The notes: a model not told the origin generated them from the sequence alone. Positions 7,767 to 31,805 are shown, counted from the stretch's first letter. The stretch is DNA of 64,000 nucleotides from Verrucomicrobiia bacterium (GCA_036509895.1 DATCEV010000055.1:12473-76472); one strand, 5' to 3'. Program-made: numbers and translations.

Positions 7767-9001
7767 GCCGACGGCATGGAATAAAGTTCCACGCCATTTT
7801 CCGCCAGTCGTTTTTGGATTTCTGCGACGTGCGCGCGGTCGCGGGTTTCCACCGTGCATAACACATGAACTCGCGAAAGGTCAGGTCCGGCAAAAGTCCG
7901 GTTGTGAACGATTTCCGTCACGTTCGCTCCAGCATCGGCCAACACGCCAGACAAATGTGCCAAGCTGCCGGGACGATCATTCAATAAAACATCAAAACGA
8001 TAAATGCGTCCGTCTGCCGCCAATCCGCGTTCGATCACGCGGCTGTGCGCCAGCGGATCAATGTTTCCGCCCGTCAGCAATAACACGACTTTGCGACCAG
8101 CGAGTTCCGGCAATTGTCCGCTCAACATCGCGGCCAATCCCGCCGCGCCCGCGCCTTCGATGATGCACCTTTCCAGTTCGGCCAATCGCAGCATCGCCAG
8201 CGCGAGCCATTCTTCCTGAACTTGAACCATTTTGTGAACCAATGGCCGCGCGATGGCGAGCGTGTGTCGTCCGGCTTCGGCCACGGCCAATCCGTCCGCA
8301 AGCGTATATTTTGTAGCGACACGAATTGGTATTTCCGCCGCCAAGCCTGCCGCGAAACACGCGGCGTTTGCAGGTTCAACGCCGATGATTTGCAAATCCG
8401 GTTTGAGCGCGTGAAAAACCGTTGCCACGCCTGCCAACAATCCGCCGCCGCCGACCGGCACAACGACCGCTTCGACGTCGGGAACCTGTTCGAGAATTTC
8501 AAATGCCAGCGTTCCCTGTCCGGCGATGACGCGCGGATCGTCGAATGGATGAACGTAAGTTAATTTTTTTTCTTCGGCCAAACGATTGGCTTCGCTGCGT
8601 GCGTCGTCAAACGTGTCTCCGTAAAGAATCACCGTCGCGCCAAGTTGACGGCAACGCGCGACTTTCACGAGCGGCGCAAAACGCGGCATCACGACCGTCA
8701 CTGGAATTTCAAGCAATTGTCCATGCCGCGCCAAACCCAACGCATGATTTCCCGCCGACGCGGCGATGACTCCCGCACGCGAGTGTTCCGGCGTCAGTTG
8801 CGCCAGCGCGTTGCGCGCGCCGCGTTCCTTGAAACTGCCGGTGCGTTGCAAAAATTCCTGTTTGCAGAAAATGCGCGCGCCGGTCAATTCGCTCAACGCG
8901 GCGGATTCCTCGCATGGCGTGTAACGAATCGCGCCGTTCAAGCGAGAACGCGCCGCGACGATTTCTGAAAGCGGAACCATGATCTTGGATTGATTTTTCA
9001 T
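7763..9001 (-). CDS. ilvA: Threonine ammonia-lyase (biosynthetic threonine dehydratase) with a C-terminal ACT-like domain
   Basis: PLP-fold motifs FKERGARN and ASAGNHA, plus an ACT-like tail. Start set at MKNQSKIMVPL (9001), downstream of the attenuator terminator. Track ORF extends to 9079. Confidence 0.85.
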   Translation of the reverse strand: MKNQSKIMVPLSEIVAARSRLNGAIRYTPCEESAALSELTGARIFCKQEFLQRTGSFKERGARNALAQLTPEHSRAGVIAASAGNHALGLARHGQLLEIPVTVVMPRFAPLVKVARCRQLGATVILYGDTFDDARSEANRLAEEKKLTYVHPFDDPRVIAGQGTLAFEILEQVPDVEAVVVPVGGGGLLAGVATVFHALKPDLQIIGVEPANAACFAAGLAAEIPIRVATKYTLADGLAVAEAGRHTLAIARPLVHKMVQVQEEWLALAMLRLAELERCIIEGAGAAGLAAMLSGQLPELAGRKVVLLLTGGNIDPLAHSRVIERGLAADGRIYRFDVLLNDRPGSLAHLSGVLADAGANVTEIVHNRTFAGPDLSRVHVLCTVETRDRAHVAEIQKRLAENGVELYSMPSA

Positions 9002-9017
9002 AAATGATTTAGGCAAC

Positions 9018-9045
9018 AAAAAAGCCCCGAGCGGAACTCGAGGCT
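9018..9045 (-). terminator. Attenuator terminator (segments 3:4) upstream of ilvA
   Basis: Minus strand reads AGCCUCGAG-UUCCG-CUCGGGGCU, a 9-bp stem with one G-U pair, followed by UUUUUU. Confidence 0.7.
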
Positions 9046-9075
9046 TTGGTGAAAATCGCGTGCTATTGGCAAAAG

Positions 9076-9144
9076 TCATCCAAGCCCCGAATCGGGGCTG
9101 ATAATAATCGCGATGATTATATTGGATGACGCAAAGTTAAACAT
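9076..9144 (-). CDS. Ile-rich leader peptide of the ilvA attenuator (22 aa: MFNFASSNIIIAIIISPDSGLG)
   Basis: Own translation. Six Ile codons fall within seven consecutive codons. The last codons and the stop overlap hairpin AGCCCCG-AUU-CGGGGCU. Confidence 0.65.
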   Translation of the reverse strand: MFNFASSNIIIAIIISPDSGLG

Positions 9145-9155
9145 TGCGAGGTTTA

Positions 9156-9182
9156 ACTATATTAGAAATTGATGCGTGTCAA
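9156..9182 (-). promoter_or_regulatory. Candidate sigma70 promoter for the ilv leader
   Basis: Minus strand reads TTGACA, a 15-nt spacer, then TATAGT, ending about 12 nt before the leader ATG. The spacer is shorter than optimal. Confidence 0.4.
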
Positions 9183-9200
9183 GTTGCGGCGCCGCAATTC

Positions 9201-10439
9201 TTAAACCAATTGCGGCTCTTCAATTTCTTTCGGCGGTTTGGCCAGCGGCGTGCCATCGGCGGCTTCGGGATATTCAAAAATTTTGCCTTCGTAATTGCGG
9301 ATGAGCACGCGACCCGCGTTGCGGCACAAAACATATTCGGGCGCGACCGGCACTTTGCCGCCGCCGCCGGGCGCGTCAATGACATAAGTCGGCACGGCGT
9401 AACCGGTCGTGTGGCCGCGCAATTTTTCCATGATCTCCAAACCGCGCTTGACGCTCGTGCGCAAATGCGCGGAGCCGGAAATCAAATCGCATTGATAAAT
9501 GTAATACGGCTTCACGCGGCACATCAAAAGTTTTTGCACGAGCGCTTTCATCACGTCGGCATCGTCGTTGACGTGCTTGAGCAAGACACTTTGATTGCCG
9601 AGCGGAATGCCGGCATCGGCCAGACGACCGAGCGCATCACGAACTTCCGTGGTCAATTCGCGCGGATGATTCGTGTGAACGCTGATGAACAGCGGATGAA
9701 AATTTTTCAGCATCGCGCACAGTTCGGGCGTGATGCGTTGCGGCAGAAAAATCGGAATGCGCGTGCCGATGCGCAAAAATTCCACGTGCGGAATCGCGCG
9801 CAGGCGGCTCAACAAATTTTCCAGTTTTTCATCGCTCAACAACAGCGGATCGCCGCCGCTCAAAAGCACGTCGCGGATTTCGGGATGTTGCGCGATGTAT
9901 TCGATTTGCCGGTCAAATTCGGGATGAAAATCGTAGCCGCTGGCGTTGCTCACGAGCCGTGAGCGCGTGCAGTAACGGCAATAACTCGCGCAACGATCCG
10001 TCACCAAAAATAAAACGCGGTCGGGATAGCGATGCACCAAGCCGGGCACGGGCGAATGCGAATCTTCGCCGCACGGATCGCTCATTTCCCAGGATGCGGT
10101 TTTTGTCTCGGCAATTTTCGGAATGACTTGCAAGCGAATCGGACAATTTTCGTCCGCCGGGTCAATCAGATTGAAAAAATAGGGCGTGATGGCGAGCGCG
10201 AGTTTGGTGTTCGCGAGTTTTGCGCCGGCAAATTCTTCCGGCGTGAGCGTGGGCAAAAAATTTTGCAATTGCTCGGCGTTCGTGATGCGATGTTTGAGTT
10301 GCCAGTGCCAGTCGTTCCAGTCTTTTTCCGAAACGTCGCGCCAGAAACCGCGGCCGGCGGAATGGAATTCTTTCAAGGATTGAAATCGAGGGGCTGGCGG
10401 CGGCTCCTTGCCGCTCGCAGAAAAATTGTCAGTCTGCAT
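9201..10439 (-). CDS. kamA: Lysine 2,3-aminomutase family radical SAM enzyme
   Basis: CASYCRYCTRS (CxxxCxxC), LLSGGDPL and GGGGK are KamA-family signatures. 412 aa. Confidence 0.85.
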   Translation of the reverse strand: MQTDNFSASGKEPPPAPRFQSLKEFHSAGRGFWRDVSEKDWNDWHWQLKHRITNAEQLQNFLPTLTPEEFAGAKLANTKLALAITPYFFNLIDPADENCPIRLQVIPKIAETKTASWEMSDPCGEDSHSPVPGLVHRYPDRVLFLVTDRCASYCRYCTRSRLVSNASGYDFHPEFDRQIEYIAQHPEIRDVLLSGGDPLLLSDEKLENLLSRLRAIPHVEFLRIGTRIPIFLPQRITPELCAMLKNFHPLFISVHTNHPRELTTEVRDALGRLADAGIPLGNQSVLLKHVNDDADVMKALVQKLLMCRVKPYYIYQCDLISGSAHLRTSVKRGLEIMEKLRGHTTGYAVPTYVIDAPGGGGKVPVAPEYVLCRNAGRVLIRNYEGKIFEYPEAADGTPLAKPPKEIEEPQLV

Positions 10440-26907: not shown

Positions 26908-27578
26908 TTAAGGACTCTTCGGCGGAGTTTGCGGTGGCGGAGTTTTTCCACGTTTCGCATCGCGCTCAATGTGGCTTGCAGTGAACCATGCCGCCATTTT
27001 ATCGGGGTTGCTGGCGTATTTGTTGTGCATGATTGCGTCCAACGTCGTCATAGCCTTCATTCCCTGCGCGATTAACTGGCCGATGGTCGCCGTGTTGCCG
27101 ACGCCCGTTTCACGATTGCTTTCCTGTTGGTTTTGCGCGGTCGTCACCGCCGTGCGGTCAGTTTGTAAAGCCGTGACAAAATTTGCATCCATTTCGTGCG
27201 CGACAAATTTTGCGGCCAGCGCGGGTTGCGCTGTGAATTGCTGTAAAAATTTATCCGCCGTGGTCAGCAATGCCCCTTCATTTCCGTTTGCAGGCGGACG
27301 AAAGCTGTCGCCAAAGCCCGGTTCAGTTAGCGCGATGGCGGCGGCGGTGCGGGTGATGTTTTGGATGTCCAGCCGGAGGCGTCCAGCAAAGTTTCCTTGC
27401 TGGTGTTCCGACCCGGCTTCTGCCCTGCTTTGGCGCTGTCCAAGCTGGTGAGGGTCTGGCTGATGATGGTGAAGTTTGTTTGCGCCGTGCTGCCTGCGGC
27501 AAAATCCGCCGCGTTATCCTGCCCGAATGTTTTGGCGCGCTGAAATGCGTCATATCTGCGAGTTTCTCGGCTATCCAT
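26908..27578 (-). pseudogene. Hypothetical protein split by an apparent 1-nt frameshift near 27375
   Basis: Track ORFs 27327..27704 (real start MDSRETRRYD at 27578) and 26908..27270. The downstream frame stays open upstream and reads ..RLDIQNITRTAAAIALTEPGF (own translation). Confidence 0.4.
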
Positions 27579-27625
27579 ATTGAGTCCTTTTCTATTTTGG
27601 TTTGTTTGTTTTGGTTTCCCGAAAG

Positions 27626-27865
27626 TCAAAATTTCTCGTGCGGCAAGGGCAAACTCCGCGTCAAGCTGCCAACATCGCGGCCAAGTATTCTGGCAATAGC
27701 ACACATTTTTTTTAAGGACGGATTGCGCTGCCCTCTCTCCACTCCGCCGATATAACTTGGATCTGTATTCGACTTCAATGCGAGGTCTTCTTGGGACAAT
27801 CCTTTGACCCTGCGCGCTTCTCGAATCCTATGACCTAGCAATTGCATCGAAGTTAGCTTTTTCAA
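27626..27865 (-). CDS. XRE-family helix-turn-helix regulator
   Basis: LGHRIREARRVKGLSQEDLALKSNTDPSYIGGVERGQRNPSLKKMCAIARIL is a canonical HTH_XRE. Confidence 0.75.
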   Translation of the reverse strand: MKKLTSMQLLGHRIREARRVKGLSQEDLALKSNTDPSYIGGVERGQRNPSLKKMCAIARILGRDVGSLTRSLPLPHEKF

Positions 27866-28013
27866 CCATTGCAGGCTCTTCTATAAATGGATTTTCCGTC
27901 CAGTGACTATATTCACGATTTTTTCCTTGTATTATGAAGCCATATCTTGTAAAAATACCATTCAAGGGTGACCTTCAGGCGTTTCGAGGCCGCCGGTTAA
28001 AAAAGCAAAATCT

Positions 28014-29863
28014 ATGAAAACATCCATTAAACTTGTCTTAATTGTAGCCTTATTCGTTTCGTCTTTTTCGTCCCAAGCCATCACCAACACGGTCATTGCG
28101 TTTCGGGAACGAACATTGTCCTTTCGTGGCCGAGCTTCGGTTATGAAAGCTATCTCATTCAATATCGCCAGACGCTCAATTCGACCGATTCATGGTCGGC
28201 CCTGACCAATGCTTATCCGGCGAACAGCACGAACCGGACAACCTTTACGATTTCAGCCAACCCGCCAACCGGCAGTTTTTATGCAACAAATACCGGCGAT
28301 GGTTCGATTGATCCCAATGACACGAACACGACTTCCTTTGACGGCACCAATACGCTGCAACCGGGCACCGGCTTTTTCCGCGTGTTTCATATTCCAGACT
28401 GGCTTGTCAGTTTTTCGGGCTACACTTTCGATGGCCCGACTTTTATCCCGGTGGATTTTTCCGCGCCGGACGCCGATACAAACTATATTGACAATGTCAC
28501 GGTGCTGATCAATGGCCAGCCCACGGATTACGCGACCTTTATTCCTGACACCATTGACGGAACGACTTATTGGGGAATGGGAGTTTACTTTGACCGGTTT
28601 GCCAATGGAACCAACACCATTCAATTGATCACGACCGTGCGGGAATCCGACACGTTGAATGACCAGACGCCTTACATGGTTTTCTCCAATGCGCCGCAAA
28701 CCATTGTCATCGGAAATTTTGTGACTTACACCAATTGGGACGATTTGATTTGGAACAACACCAACTATACTTTCCGGGCGCAAAGCAGCGCCACGAACGT
28801 GGATTGGGAAATTGACATTTACGATATTTATGGCGACTTCGTGAATTCTCAAACCGGCCACTCCGACGATGGCAATATTTCCTGGACGTGGGATTTGACG
28901 GATTATACCGGCGCTTCGCGCGCGGACTCCGATTCTGATCCGGTTTTTTATCCTTACATTACCATCACTGAAAATTCAGAAAGCTTGGTTCAATTAGGCA
29001 GCGTTCATCCCGATGCTGGTGGTGGCAGCGCCACAATGCCGCCCGCCGCCGCGTCCTTCCCCAGCGCCGGTGGATGGATTATTGCCTATATGGACAATTT
29101 TTTTATTGACGCTGGACAAAGCGGCGAAGATGACTATTACAAAGGGGTAATGAACAATTTGGTCGGAGGTCCGGCTTTGTGGGACATCTCGGTGACACCC
29201 TATGCAATTGAATACGGCAGCAATTACGCGCAAGCAGATCGCGATGGCAGTTGGAGCAACCTCGTCAATGTGCTTTCCAATCCGCAGTATCGGAATTTTT
29301 ATTATTTCGGACATGGTGCTCCTGATCGTATCGGCGGAGACATAACCACCTTTGACAGCAGCAATAATCCGACCGGCGCAACAGAATTCCCCGGCTCAAA
29401 AGCTCATTTAATGAGTCAGGACGTCCCTGACAAAATTACTGTCAATAATCCCCTCGGCGCATGTTTTTACCGTTTCGTTTTTTTAGATGGCTGTAATACG
29501 GCCAATGGCGATTTACCGGATGCTTGGGGTATCGGCAAAGCCACAAATGATTTGGCTTATTACAACAGCCCTGGCAACACTCGTCATCTGCGTCCCTCTG
29601 CGTTTGTCGGCTGGAACACCACGCCCGGTGGCAGCGGCTGGGGAACGCAAGATAACGCTTTGGGATTCCGCAGTTCCTGGATGGGGAACTGGTCGGTAAA
29701 TAATGGCAATCCTAGTGATGGGCTGAGCGATATTTTCACCTTCACAGCCGATAATTACGGCTGGCCGCCAAACCGTTCCCCGCAACTTTGGAGTGCCTTG
29801 CGTGTTTATGGTTATCGTAATATAAAATTTAATGAATATAATCGCCAAGGCGACTGGCCGTAA
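28014..29863 (+). CDS. Secreted multidomain protein with a C-terminal caspase/CHAT-like His-Cys dyad; needs a -1 shift near 28103
   Basis: Signal peptide ORF 28014..28205. The frame of ORF 28382..29863 is open back to 28031 with no start codon (..GTNIVLSWPSFGYESYLIQY..FFRVF). Later motifs are FYYFGHGAPD (His at 29312) and FVFLDGCNTANG (Cys at 29492). Confidence 0.55.
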
Positions 29864-29867
29864 TCAA

Positions 29868-31184
29868 ATGCTTCGAGCAATCACGATCCGCTTTGTTTTT
29901 TTTGCGCTGCTCTTCTGCGGCATGACGGAGAAGTCGTCCGGCATGATCGTGAAATTCAGTCCAAGAATAAATATTTTTCAGGTCACGCCGGAATACTCCA
30001 ATGCCGTCGTAGCGGTGTTGTTGCCCTATTATTCCGATTTTGCAAAAAAGCTGGATTTGCCCATTTCTCTTCCAATCAAGGCTGAAGACATTGCTCACTG
30101 GGCGATTGTGCCAAATGAAAATCCGAAAGGCGAATGGGCAGGAGGCAGCATCGGTCTTAAGAACGGCTGGTCTTTCAGTTTTCAATTCGGCTGCGTCAAT
30201 GGTTTTGAAAGTTCACATTCTTACTTTGGGCTGCAAGACCCTCATGAAATTCCCAAGTTCTACGGACAAGTTAAGATGACGACCAACGAGATTGTCCAAC
30301 TGGCGCGCGACACAATCAAGAAGCTTGGAATACCATTGGAAGAGGTTTTTGCCGATCAAGAGCCACAAATCAAGCCTCCTGAACACGTTGGCACAAATAC
30401 CGTGCCTTGTTATATGATAGAATGGCCTGATCCCTATGGAGATTATATCAGGATGGAAATCAACGCCGAAACCAAACGGGTGGAAAACTTGTATATGCTT
30501 TCCCGCAATCTCAAGCGGCCTTCGCCAAAAATAAATGTCGTCCCGCCAAAAGCACGCGGCTTTGAACATCTTCCGACAATAAATCCTGATTATGTATGGA
30601 AGCTGATTCCCATGATGCTTCAGGCCATAGATGAATACGCGCAAACACTTTCCCTGCCCATTCCGCATCCGTTGAACACAAACGCTGTTGCGATAGTCGA
30701 AGCTCACGATAATGGCGGCTGGCCGCATTGTGAAATCACGCTTACCAACGGCTGGCGTTTCATTTATCGCCACACGATGGTCAACGGCTATTACAATCCA
30801 GATAATTTTTTCATGAGGGACTACTGTCCTTTTCATCTCAAGGATTTTGAGGGCAAATGGAACTTGAACACAAATCAAGCCGTTGAATTGGTTAAAAAAA
30901 CGCTCGCTAAACTCAATTATCCCACCAACAACATTCACATGAATTTTCAGCCGGAAATTCTCTATGCCGCCGGCGATTTCAAGAAAATCATCCCGCGCTA
31001 CTTTTTTGAATGGGATTACGACAATGCAACCCATGATGACCTGCAATCCAAAGTGGAAGCCGAAGTCAACGCCGATAACGGCAAACTGGAATCGCTTTAT
31101 TACGACGACAAAGCCTATTGGGATAGTCGCCCGCCCATTGACGTTCCCATTTCGTCAGGAAAATATCCAAACCTTCCGCGATGA
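29868..31184 (+). CDS. Secreted protein made of two about 190-aa tandem modules with PepSY-like ends
   Basis: Start MLRAITIRFVFFALLF, 5 nt after the upstream stop. Internal duplication: IGLKNGWSFSF/ITLTNGWRFIY and MEINAETKRVENLY/EVNADNGKLESLY. Confidence 0.6.
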   Translation: MLRAITIRFVFFALLFCGMTEKSSGMIVKFSPRINIFQVTPEYSNAVVAVLLPYYSDFAKKLDLPISLPIKAEDIAHWAIVPNENPKGEWAGGSIGLKNGWSFSFQFGCVNGFESSHSYFGLQDPHEIPKFYGQVKMTTNEIVQLARDTIKKLGIPLEEVFADQEPQIKPPEHVGTNTVPCYMIEWPDPYGDYIRMEINAETKRVENLYMLSRNLKRPSPKINVVPPKARGFEHLPTINPDYVWKLIPMMLQAIDEYAQTLSLPIPHPLNTNAVAIVEAHDNGGWPHCEITLTNGWRFIYRHTMVNGYYNPDNFFMRDYCPFHLKDFEGKWNLNTNQAVELVKKTLAKLNYPTNNIHMNFQPEILYAAGDFKKIIPRYFFEWDYDNATHDDLQSKVEAEVNADNGKLESLYYDDKAYWDSRPPIDVPISSGKYPNLPR

Positions 31185-31218
31185 TCTTTTTCGACTATAA
31201 TTATTCAGAGGATTGTCC

Positions 31219-31530
31219 ATGATGAATTTGAAGACGAGAGCAGTATTTTGTCTGGTTGCGGTCTTATTGGCTTCCGTCAACTTATTCGCAAGTCCGGCAG
31301 ATAATTATGTGCACATGGATTTTGCGCCAAGTGTTTATGCCGCCGCCGTGGAAAAGGAACATATTCCGCGTCTGGAATTCGAGTGGATTTACCAGGTTCC
31401 CGATCAATGGCAATCATGGCTGGATGCCGAAGTGAATACCGACAGTGGCAAGTTGGAATCGCTCGATTACAATAATGAGGCGTATTGGAACAGTCGCCCG
31501 CCGATTGATGCGCCGATTTCCATCAAATAA
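31219..31530 (+). CDS. Small secreted paralog of the C-terminal PepSY-like unit of the preceding protein
   Basis: GAGGA lies 8 nt before the ATG. Signal peptide present. DAEVNTDSGKLESLDYNNEAYWNSRPPIDAPIS matches the upstream protein tail at 24 of 33 residues (own count). Confidence 0.6.
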   Translation: MMNLKTRAVFCLVAVLLASVNLFASPADNYVHMDFAPSVYAAAVEKEHIPRLEFEWIYQVPDQWQSWLDAEVNTDSGKLESLDYNNEAYWNSRPPIDAPISIK

Positions 31531-31574
31531 CGCAAATCCCTCAATTTAAGCGGTTTTTACATGTAAAATCCATC

Positions 31575-31805
31575 AGCTGACACGTCGAACTCAACCAGTC
31601 ACACGTCAAATTCAGTGGCGCGCACGGCAAATAGTTCGCCTGACCCATCAAATTCACCGGCTCGCCCATCAAATTCAGCAGGTCACCTCTTCCATTCGGG
31701 AACTTACCCTTCAAATTCATCGCGTCGCACGGACCATTTGATTGCCCGCGCCTTCAATTGAACGGCGGGCACGAACCTTTCAACGACTCACCTGACTTTC
31801 ATGGC
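31575..31805. repeat. Eleven degenerate direct repeats with an exact 21-bp period
   Basis: Own alignment. TCAAATTCA sits at the same column in 4 units with degenerate versions in the others. Columns 6-7 are purine-C in all 11 units. Confidence 0.75.

Follow-up and report, generated by a model that had tools for sequence, protein, structure and literature searches.

Within a 64,000-nucleotide stretch of a Verrucomicrobiia genome (GCA_036509895.1, DATCEV010000055.1:12473-76472; hereafter "the window"), we identified two adjacent genes, gene 1 and gene 2, as members of a conserved two-gene unit that is undescribed, widespread and found almost only in Verrucomicrobiota. Gene 1 encodes an fn3/Ig-type scaffold followed by a C-terminal domain that is predicted to adopt the caspase-hemoglobinase fold and that carries an invariant His/Cys pair, and gene 2 encodes two tandem modules, each with a PepSY-like unit. 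We judge the chances to be about even that the unit consists of an exported caspase-fold His/Cys peptidase and a PepSY-type protein that is expressed together with this peptidase and binds it, serving as its chaperone and/or inhibitor. An earlier reading of the window from its sequence alone (the original prediction) had described three same-strand genes at 28014-31530. The three open reading frames (ORFs), all on the + strand, were confirmed, but the co-occurrence of all three in other genomes was not: the third, gene 3, is syntenic nowhere else, and the conserved unit is two genes, not three.

A predicted caspase-like fold at the end of gene 1

The C-terminal domain of gene 1 (29000-29863, + strand; 287 amino acids (aa) plus the stop codon) is described from AlphaFold2 (AF2) modeling, Foldseek searches and sequence conservation. 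The AF2 model of these last 287 residues, computed from an alignment of 84 homologs, has a predicted local distance difference test score (pLDDT) of 93.7 and a predicted template modeling score (pTM) of 0.91. It begins with strand 25-31, helix 42-53, strand 65-70, helix 78-92 and strand 97-103, after which comes His105; four short strands, helix 141-146 and strand 159-163 then lead to Cys165, and the model continues with strand 201-205, helices 217-233, 242-253 and 259-266, and strand 267-272. The resulting topology is b1-a1-b2-a2-b3-(His)-small beta section-a3-b4-(Cys)-b5-a4-a5-b6. Clan CD peptidases are characterized by an alpha/beta/alpha sandwich in which five helices flank a central six-stranded sheet, a small beta section separates b3 from a3, and the catalytic dyad sits at the C-terminal ends of b3 and b4 (PMC4357240); the order of elements in the AF2 model agrees with this published description. 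The order of the dyad agrees as well, with His105-Gly following strand 97-103 (NFYYFGHG) and Cys165 following strand 159-163 (FVFLDGC).

The motifs reported in the original prediction, namely FYYFGHG with its His codon at 29312 and FVFLDGC with its Cys codon at 29492, separated by 60 residues and followed by AFVGW, proved to be exact. Their order had been read as that of a clan CD peptidase, and the structural searches lead to the same clan. Against PDB, nearly all of the top 25 Foldseek matches were caspase-4, -1, -11, -3 and -7, legumain and C11 peptidases, with a best E-value of 2e-4 (range to 1e-2), a probability of 0.99 and template modeling (TM) scores of 0.35-0.54; against BFVD, the best named matches were giant-virus caspases, a metacaspase and a C11-related protease. 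Conservation of the candidate catalytic residues is nearly complete. His105 (29312-29314, + strand), Cys165 (29492-29494) and Asp163 (29486-29488), together with Arg98 and Arg158, are invariant in the 84 homologs aligned to 29000-29860. Among 146 representatives of the distant relatives, which reach down to an E-value of ~1e-18, the His is kept in 128/129, the Cys in 136/136 and the Asp two positions before the Cys in 122/134. Both checks suggested with the original prediction, a fold search and conservation of the His/Cys pair among homologs, were therefore carried out and favored it, returning the caspase-hemoglobinase fold and a pair that is invariant in all 84.

At the level of sequence, no established clan CD family was recovered. 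No clan CD family in Pfam (C11, C13, C14, C25, C50, C80 and CHAT/PF12770) matched the window protein, 35 homologs or the family consensus at E ≤ 1, NCBIfam gave no clan CD match for the window gene 1 protein, and a profile of the C-terminal domain found nothing at E ≤ 10 among all PDB sequences. The likeness to CHAT proposed earlier thus did not hold at this level, and CHAT and all other clan CD sequence families were rejected because there was no match even with the family consensus. As the fold matches clan CD but no Pfam, NCBIfam or PDB sequence model fits, the modeled domain is best described as a new family assigned at the fold level, and not as a member of C11, C13, C14, C25 or CHAT.

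Clan CD peptidases hydrolyze peptide bonds with a strict requirement at P1, and the Asp two residues before the catalytic Cys is potentially informative about specificity. In PmC11, Asp177 is the primary S1 residue for basic substrates and superimposes on Asp462 of MALT1 (PMC4850288), and in caspase-7 the position two before the catalytic Cys is occupied by Gln184 (PMC4357240). Since the position is Asp in our family, as in PmC11 and MALT1, the domain probably prefers Arg or Lys at P1.

To describe the extent of the family, a profile of the C-terminal domain was compared with 1.84 billion representative proteins, yielding 656 clusters (made at 50% identity) at E ≤ 1e-3 and 329 at E ≤ 1e-10. 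In full-length matches the domain lies at or near the C-terminus, either after an fn3/Ig scaffold or after long Ig, cadherin or Big_9 repeats (1300-1800 aa). A scan of one genome per species in GTDB recovered 80 loci, nearly all of them in Verrucomicrobiota metagenome-assembled genomes (MAGs) and none in cultured isolates.

The remainder of gene 1 (28100-28999, + strand) is an N-terminal scaffold comprising an fn3-like beta-sandwich with a VLSWPS motif, a second beta-rich region and a FlgD-Ig-like domain (~28769-28927). In Pfam, FlgD_ig weakly matches residues 224-276 of the 587-aa gene 1 translation and is matched by 17/35 gene 1 homologs (best E-value 4.3e-5), and fn3 is matched by 4/35. The scaffold also matches FlgD in a profile search of PDB sequences (E-value 0.009); this FlgD-Ig match was the only one that such searches returned, with none for the C-terminal domain or for gene 2.

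Duplicated modules and PepSY likeness in gene 2

Gene 2 (29868-31184, + strand) encodes a signal peptide and two modules, and is described from AF2 modeling, self-alignment, PepSY matches and synteny. Module 1 spans ~29979-30509 and includes unit B1 (~30267-30509), and module 2 spans ~30576-31157 and includes unit B2 (~30855-31115). The internal duplication that had been predicted for this gene was recovered clearly: the two halves align with 26% identity over 194 aa (E-value 7e-24), and profile-profile comparison relates A1 to A2 and B1 to B2, each with 99% probability. A relationship between units A and B of one module was rejected, as profile-profile comparison detected none. In the AF2 model (pLDDT 91.7), unit A is a long helix plus four strands and unit B a helix plus three or four strands, the latter seen as helix 139-152 with strands 181-187, 193-199 and 204-211, and again at 335-347 and 377-414.

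The PepSY fold is a single helix that packs on a small antiparallel sheet. The suggestion that these modules resemble PepSY holds at the family level, where the assignment is borderline. The gene 2 family consensus scores 26.8 bits against PF03413 (cut-off 24; E-value 6.5e-6) and covers profile positions 1-57 of 60, one homolog (P0130) reaches 24.1 bits, and weak PepSY matches (E ≤ 1) were found in 35/96 family members. The PF03413 match falls on unit B1, and unit B2 and gene 3 are tied to PepSY only by their homology to B1; window gene 3 has no Pfam match to PepSY at E ≤ 1. More than 300 homologs of gene 2 were found, none with a Pfam annotation, and Pfam, NCBIfam and PADLOC scans of genes 1-3 gave no family assignment.

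Several other identities for gene 2 were considered and rejected. The JGI labels "nitrogen fixation protein" and "20S proteasome subunit" reflect only sub-threshold matches (e.g., NifT, 17.3 bits against a cut-off of 22.6), a lipoprotein is contradicted by the Cys of LLFCG, which is not conserved at the N-termini of homologs, and the Foldseek matches of the whole gene 2 model were set aside as low-TM noise.

Linkage of genes 1 and 2

The synteny of genes 1 and 2 in other genomes, another check proposed at the outset, was examined in the 75 of the 80 species-level loci that have at least 700 bp of downstream sequence. In 63/75 the next gene downstream on the same strand is gene-2-like; a gene of this kind lies upstream in one locus and on the opposite strand in none. 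This is the association with an enzyme gene expected of a PepSY-type partner. In 28 loci one two-module gene encodes the partner; elsewhere single-module genes take its place, alone or in multiples and several times as a tandem pair. Five loci were reached through close homologs, and in each of them the gene 2 homolog follows the gene 1 homolog; in four of these (L001, L003, L004 and L006) the stop of gene 1 and the start of gene 2 overlap by 4 bp. The very distant relative P0298 is also followed by a two-module homolog (E-value 1.4e-58), and downstream of P0333, a 1512-aa Ig protein (L008), there are three tandem single-module paralogs. No other neighboring gene is conserved among the species-level loci. 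A second apparent pair downstream in L003 (572 and 455 aa) was found to be unrelated to both families.

A putative exported peptidase and its partner

Under the reading that we favor, the gene 1 product would be exported by the Sec pathway with a signal peptide, an fn3/Ig-type scaffold and a C-terminal catalytic domain, the last most likely acting as a cysteine endopeptidase with a His/Cys dyad that cuts after Arg or Lys. Gene 2 would be expressed from the same operon as gene 1, and its modules would bind directly to the catalytic domain and serve it in trans as chaperone and/or inhibitor, potentially holding the enzyme inactive until it is outside the producing cell. An extracellular setting is suggested by the signal peptides of gene 1 homologs and by the distant relatives that carry the domain on Ig, cadherin or Big_9 repeat proteins.

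Among clan CD peptidases, the closest families are C11 (clostripain/PmC11), followed by C14 (caspases and paracaspase) and C13 (legumain). The domain shares with them the alpha/beta fold with a six-stranded central sheet, a His-Gly after b3, a Cys after b4 and the small beta section between b3 and a3, and with C11 and MALT1 the Asp two before the Cys (Asp177-x-Cys179 in PmC11). It differs from them in that no similarity in sequence to clan CD family models or to PDB sequences could be detected, in being always C-terminal on an exported fn3/Ig scaffold, in its invariant Arg-Asn before b3 and Arg before b4, in its obligate downstream partner gene, and in being essentially restricted to Verrucomicrobiota.

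The role of the partner is argued from known PepSY proteins. The PepSY domains of YpeB have been proposed to be chaperone-inhibitors that embrace the catalytic domain of the co-operonic secreted SleB, and PepSY propeptides on M4 peptidases have been viewed likewise (PMC13556211). By analogy with YpeB-SleB and the M4 propeptides, we infer that the partner restrains the enzyme; peptidase activity, P1 preference, physical binding and inhibition are likewise proposed from such likenesses. The gene 2 family consensus reaches the PepSY (PF03413) gathering score, but the enzyme here is predicted to have a cysteine-peptidase fold and not that of a lytic transglycosylase or metallopeptidase, and an unrelated alpha/beta unit A precedes each PepSY-like unit. 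The gene 2 partners lack the transmembrane helix and helical bundle of YpeB, some of them have no signal peptide, and their binding to the enzyme is putative. A full-text literature search found no paper mentioning both PepSY and clan CD.

Co-transcribed protease/inhibitor pairs are also known in clan CA, where they include staphopain-staphostatin and the Bacteroides C10 peptidases with staphostatin-like inhibitors. In these pairs, as in the arrangement proposed here, the gene for a secreted cysteine protease is followed in the same operon by that of a protein protecting the producer. Their proteases, however, are papain-like, and their inhibitors are small beta-barrels of ~110 aa; staphostatins are cytoplasmic, whereas most partners here carry signal peptides.

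Several observations weigh against the proposed peptidase and partner. For gene 1, no peptidase-family sequence model matches, family consensus included, the Foldseek scores of the C-terminal domain are moderate (TM 0.35-0.54), and the copy in the window is frameshifted (see below). For gene 2, the window protein has no PepSY match in Pfam at E ≤ 1, and Foldseek with the undivided two-module model returned nothing significant, the best relevant match being the lipoprotein 4exr (E-value 0.12, probability 0.54). In addition, ~29/120 gene 2 homologs lack a signal peptide and start instead at a conserved Met (GM[IV]L.LG), which is awkward for a partner acting beside an exported enzyme. In L006 no in-frame upstream extension of the partner start (10103) is possible, so this signal-peptide-less form is verified. 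Lastly, 17/120 gene 2 homologs are fused to an N-terminal scaffold homologous to that of gene 1, and a simple inhibitor model leaves these scaffold-fused partners unexplained.

Both unusual partner forms have further features of their own. Partners without a signal peptide occur although the cognate gene 1 homolog has one, and the conserved Met corresponds to residue 26 of window gene 2, directly after the signal peptide, so that an internal start is conceivable. The fusions are ~700 aa long and consist of a signal peptide, an fn3/Ig scaffold and two PepSY-like modules (P0133, P0144, P0149, P0156, P0181 and others), and in L005 the fusion (8001-10148) follows a normal gene 1 homolog. One type of scaffold can thus bear PepSY-like modules in place of the caspase-fold domain.

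A basic residue followed by Pro occurs after each PepSY-like unit of gene 2, at residues 217-218 and 421-423 (window ~30516-30521 and ~31128-31136). Across the family (n = 96), R/K/H217 is present in 84 members and P218 in 72, and R421 in 72, P422 in 95 and P423 in 82. More speculatively, these segments could be uncleavable substrate mimics for a peptidase with a basic P1 preference; the tail is modeled as packed on the domain. The motif would also suit a processing or attachment system. The clan CD domain would then work as a transpeptidase or a maturation peptidase, in the manner of legumain/GPI8 or the gingipain-like PorU, and its substrate or cargo, e.g., a surface-layer or fiber subunit, would be the gene 2 product, which would not be its regulator. 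Clan CD does include transamidases and sortase-like enzymes (families C13 and C25), and the conserved number of modules and the gene 2 homologs built on the signal peptide, fn3 and Ig scaffold of the enzyme would suit such a role. On the other hand, a Pro at P1' usually prevents cleavage, the model packs the C-terminal tail on the domain (pLDDT ~93) with no free linker, no sorting-signal motif was identified, and those partners that lack a signal peptide could not reach the surface as cargo. PepSY domains are, moreover, known as regulators and not as substrates (PMC13556211). We consider processing or attachment of the gene 2 product quite improbable, and return to the peptidase with a restraining partner.

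If this model holds, clan CD gains a sizeable new family (the 656 clusters above) that is unmatched in Pfam, NCBIfam and PDB sequence searches, and the role of PepSY would be extended from metallopeptidase propeptides and YpeB-SleB to the control of a cysteine peptidase in trans. A concrete function, open to testing, would also be proposed for two large sets of "hypothetical proteins" from Verrucomicrobiota of soil and freshwater, to our knowledge a phylum with few characterized secreted enzymes. The conserved count of two modules, whether fused or as two tandem genes, leads to a clear structural prediction of how the partner would grip the enzyme.

Gene 3, possible cassette exchange and a possible toxin-immunity role

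Gene 3 (31219-31530, + strand) encodes a signal-peptide-like N-terminus and one PepSY-like unit B, and a Shine-Dalgarno-like AGAGGA lies 8-9 nt before its ATG at 31219. It had been described as a short paralog of the terminal unit of gene 2, and it does share 51% identity with the last ~100 aa of that protein. Over its last 75 aa, however, it has 72-76% identity to members of another gene-2 clade (P0199, P0166), compared with 51% to the resident gene 2 and 52% to the gene 2 ortholog. We found no stand-alone homolog of gene 3 among 5.8e9 proteins and no separate gene-3-like ORF by tblastn of six related loci. In the orthologous locus L091, the order gene 1-gene 2-glgC is kept with 71-79% nucleotide identity, gene 2 and glgC are separated by 165 bp, and both gene 3 and the repeats that follow it in the window are absent. 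Because it is nearer to the other gene-2 clade and absent from L091, we conclude that gene 3 derives from another cassette lineage and lies outside the conserved system, and its candidacy as a conserved third component was rejected for lack of a stand-alone homolog and for its absence in L091. It is a lineage-specific paralog or remnant and may have been domesticated as a mini-protein.

Exchange of cassettes is also suggested on the other side of the unit. Divergent from gene 1 lies a gene for a 79-aa XRE-family HTH_3 regulator (27626-27865, - strand; Pfam HTH_3, 52.3 bits), and PADLOC matches its product to generic helix-turn-helix (HTH) "control protein" models of the restriction-modification type. 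The XRE gene of L053 shares 85% identity in protein and 81% in DNA over 300 bp (window 27636-27935; L053 2882-3181), a match that spans the gene and part of its upstream region, whereas the L053 gene 1 homolog has only 26% identity to gene 1. This suggests cassette exchange behind a conserved regulator. A divergent XRE homolog is found upstream in ~9-10/80 related loci, and also in L005. The gene was rejected as an obligate part of the system, being present with about one cassette in eight.

These observations raise the alternative of an effector-immunity pair, in which the caspase-fold domain would be a secreted toxin protease displayed on variable scaffolds and the PepSY-like protein the cognate immunity protein of the producer and its kin. 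We regard this as unlikely, although many features of the loci are compatible with it. The catalytic domain is always C-terminal, in proteins whose N-terminal parts are built very differently, the partner gene comes next downstream in tight linkage (63/75), and the scaffold bears alternative C-terminal parts, namely PepSY-like modules or the caspase-fold domain. Gene 3, situated just after the resident partner, resembles an orphan 3' remnant of a different partner clade, the contrast between XRE (85%) and gene 1 (26%) identity in L053 points to cassette swapping, and the block is poorer in G+C than its flanks. Tandem arrangements of two cassettes, or of one cassette and pieces of another, occur in L021 and L023, and in L001 (1-15253; Verrucomicrobiales MAG JAQTQB01) the cassette lies between MmeI-type restriction-modification, TIR_2 and RadC genes and a phage-type integrase gene, surroundings that look like a mobile or defense island. 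Most loci, in contrast, sit among housekeeping genes, PADLOC found no match for genes 1-3, and Pfam scans of the gene 1 family found no known toxin-trafficking, pre-toxin or secretion-system domains. At ~430 aa and with two modules as a conserved design, the partner would be a large immunity protein, and within the close family the C-terminal domain is not hypervariable relative to the N-terminus. In mechanism, moreover, the effector-immunity pair overlaps with the favored reading, since the partner inhibits the enzyme in both.

Comparison with polymorphic toxin, contact-dependent inhibition (CDI) and Rhs loci leads to a similar balance. Those loci likewise have a C-terminal enzymatic domain on variable scaffolds with a protective gene directly downstream, as well as displaced remnants after resident genes and cassette exchange. 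They differ from the present loci, which have no recognized delivery, pre-toxin or secretion-system domains, a large partner of conserved architecture and, in the close family, a catalytic domain that is conserved and not polymorphic. In its most developed form, the idea would be a Verrucomicrobiota-specific secreted effector system, in which two PepSY-like modules, acting as a cognate immunity/chaperone pair, clamp a protease of a new clan CD family, and cassettes are exchanged behind a shared XRE gene, leaving orphan fragments such as gene 3. We think it improbable that all of this applies; if it did, the loci would parallel polymorphic toxin-immunity loci, with a protease at their center, and would provide the first example of a cysteine peptidase kept under control in trans by a PepSY-type protein.

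A frameshift in the window copy of gene 1

The original prediction gave gene 1, like genes 2 and 3, a signal peptide. Judged by eye, the signal peptides of genes 2 and 3 look typical, and gene 1 homologs bear signal peptides as well, but that of window gene 1 is out of frame, a single missing G near 28100 splitting the gene. The signal-peptide segment (MKTSIKLVLIVALFVSSFSSQA then ITNTVIA; 28014-28100, + strand) belongs to an ORF at 28014-28205 that occupies a different frame from the main gene 1 ORF. The latter is open from 28031, and its first start codon is the GTG at 28382, from which the NCBI annotation calls a 493-aa protein. At the break (ATTGCG^TTTCGGG; 28095-28107, + strand) the window has one G fewer than its homologs: in comparison with the DNA of L001, L003 and L004, the homologs read ATC GCx GTT TCG GGx ACx AAT and the window reads ATT GCG TTT CGG G. 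Insertion of one G at ~28100 gives a 616-codon ORF without an internal stop, in which MKTS...QA is followed by ITNTVIAVSGTNIVLSWPS, and the repaired 616-aa protein aligns over its whole length (100%) with three homologs (P0005, P0008 and P0009). Programmed -1 frameshifting at the break is unlikely, given that GCG TTT C was judged to be no slippery heptamer and that the homologs have the extra G.

Because the missing G puts the signal peptide out of frame, the window copy of gene 1 may be dead, and owing to the base lost between signal peptide and mature protein its product may be neither exported nor made. The whole locus in the window could accordingly be a decaying copy, in which gene 1 is frameshifted, gene 2 has stayed intact yet idle, and gene 3 is a truncated remnant; we see this as a serious possibility that falls somewhat short of even, and it is compatible with any explanation at the family level. 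Translation from the next in-frame start (GTG 28382) would leave out the first domain and yield a cytoplasmic product, gene 3 has no counterpart elsewhere, and the deletion is present in both deposited assemblies, the second of which (ENA k141_437481, L007) is 100% identical across 12 kb, deletion included. The two assemblies may stem from the same reads, however, in which case an assembly or consensus error or a minority variant could account for the deletion. The remaining 587 codons of gene 1 contain no stop and have 60-67% identity to intact homologs, so that either any inactivation was very recent or the deletion is an assembly artifact. Gene 3, for its part, retains an open frame, its Shine-Dalgarno-like site and conserved motifs.

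Base composition and flanking features

The block that contains the three genes had been called AT-richer by eye, and its G+C content (27500-31530) is indeed 47.4% against 52.6% for the window, with no 4-kb stretch of the window being lower. The G+C content of third codon positions (GC3) is 0.52-0.55 in the block and 0.66-0.72 in the hflX-like and glgC-like genes on either side. Between hflX and the XRE gene, at 26908-27704, are two small minus-strand ORFs (120 and 125 aa) with no Pfam match; the second overlaps the XRE ORF, and gene callers differ over this region.

The XRE gene (27626-27865) and the 21-bp repeat array (31559-31737) that the original prediction had placed on either side of the block were both found. 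The array lies between gene 3 and the glgC-like gene and consists of degenerate direct repeats in a 21-bp phase, with exact copies of TCAAATTCA at 31606, 31648, 31669 and 31711 (spacings of 42, 21 and 42). As L091 lacks both the repeats and gene 3, the two may have arrived or been lost together.

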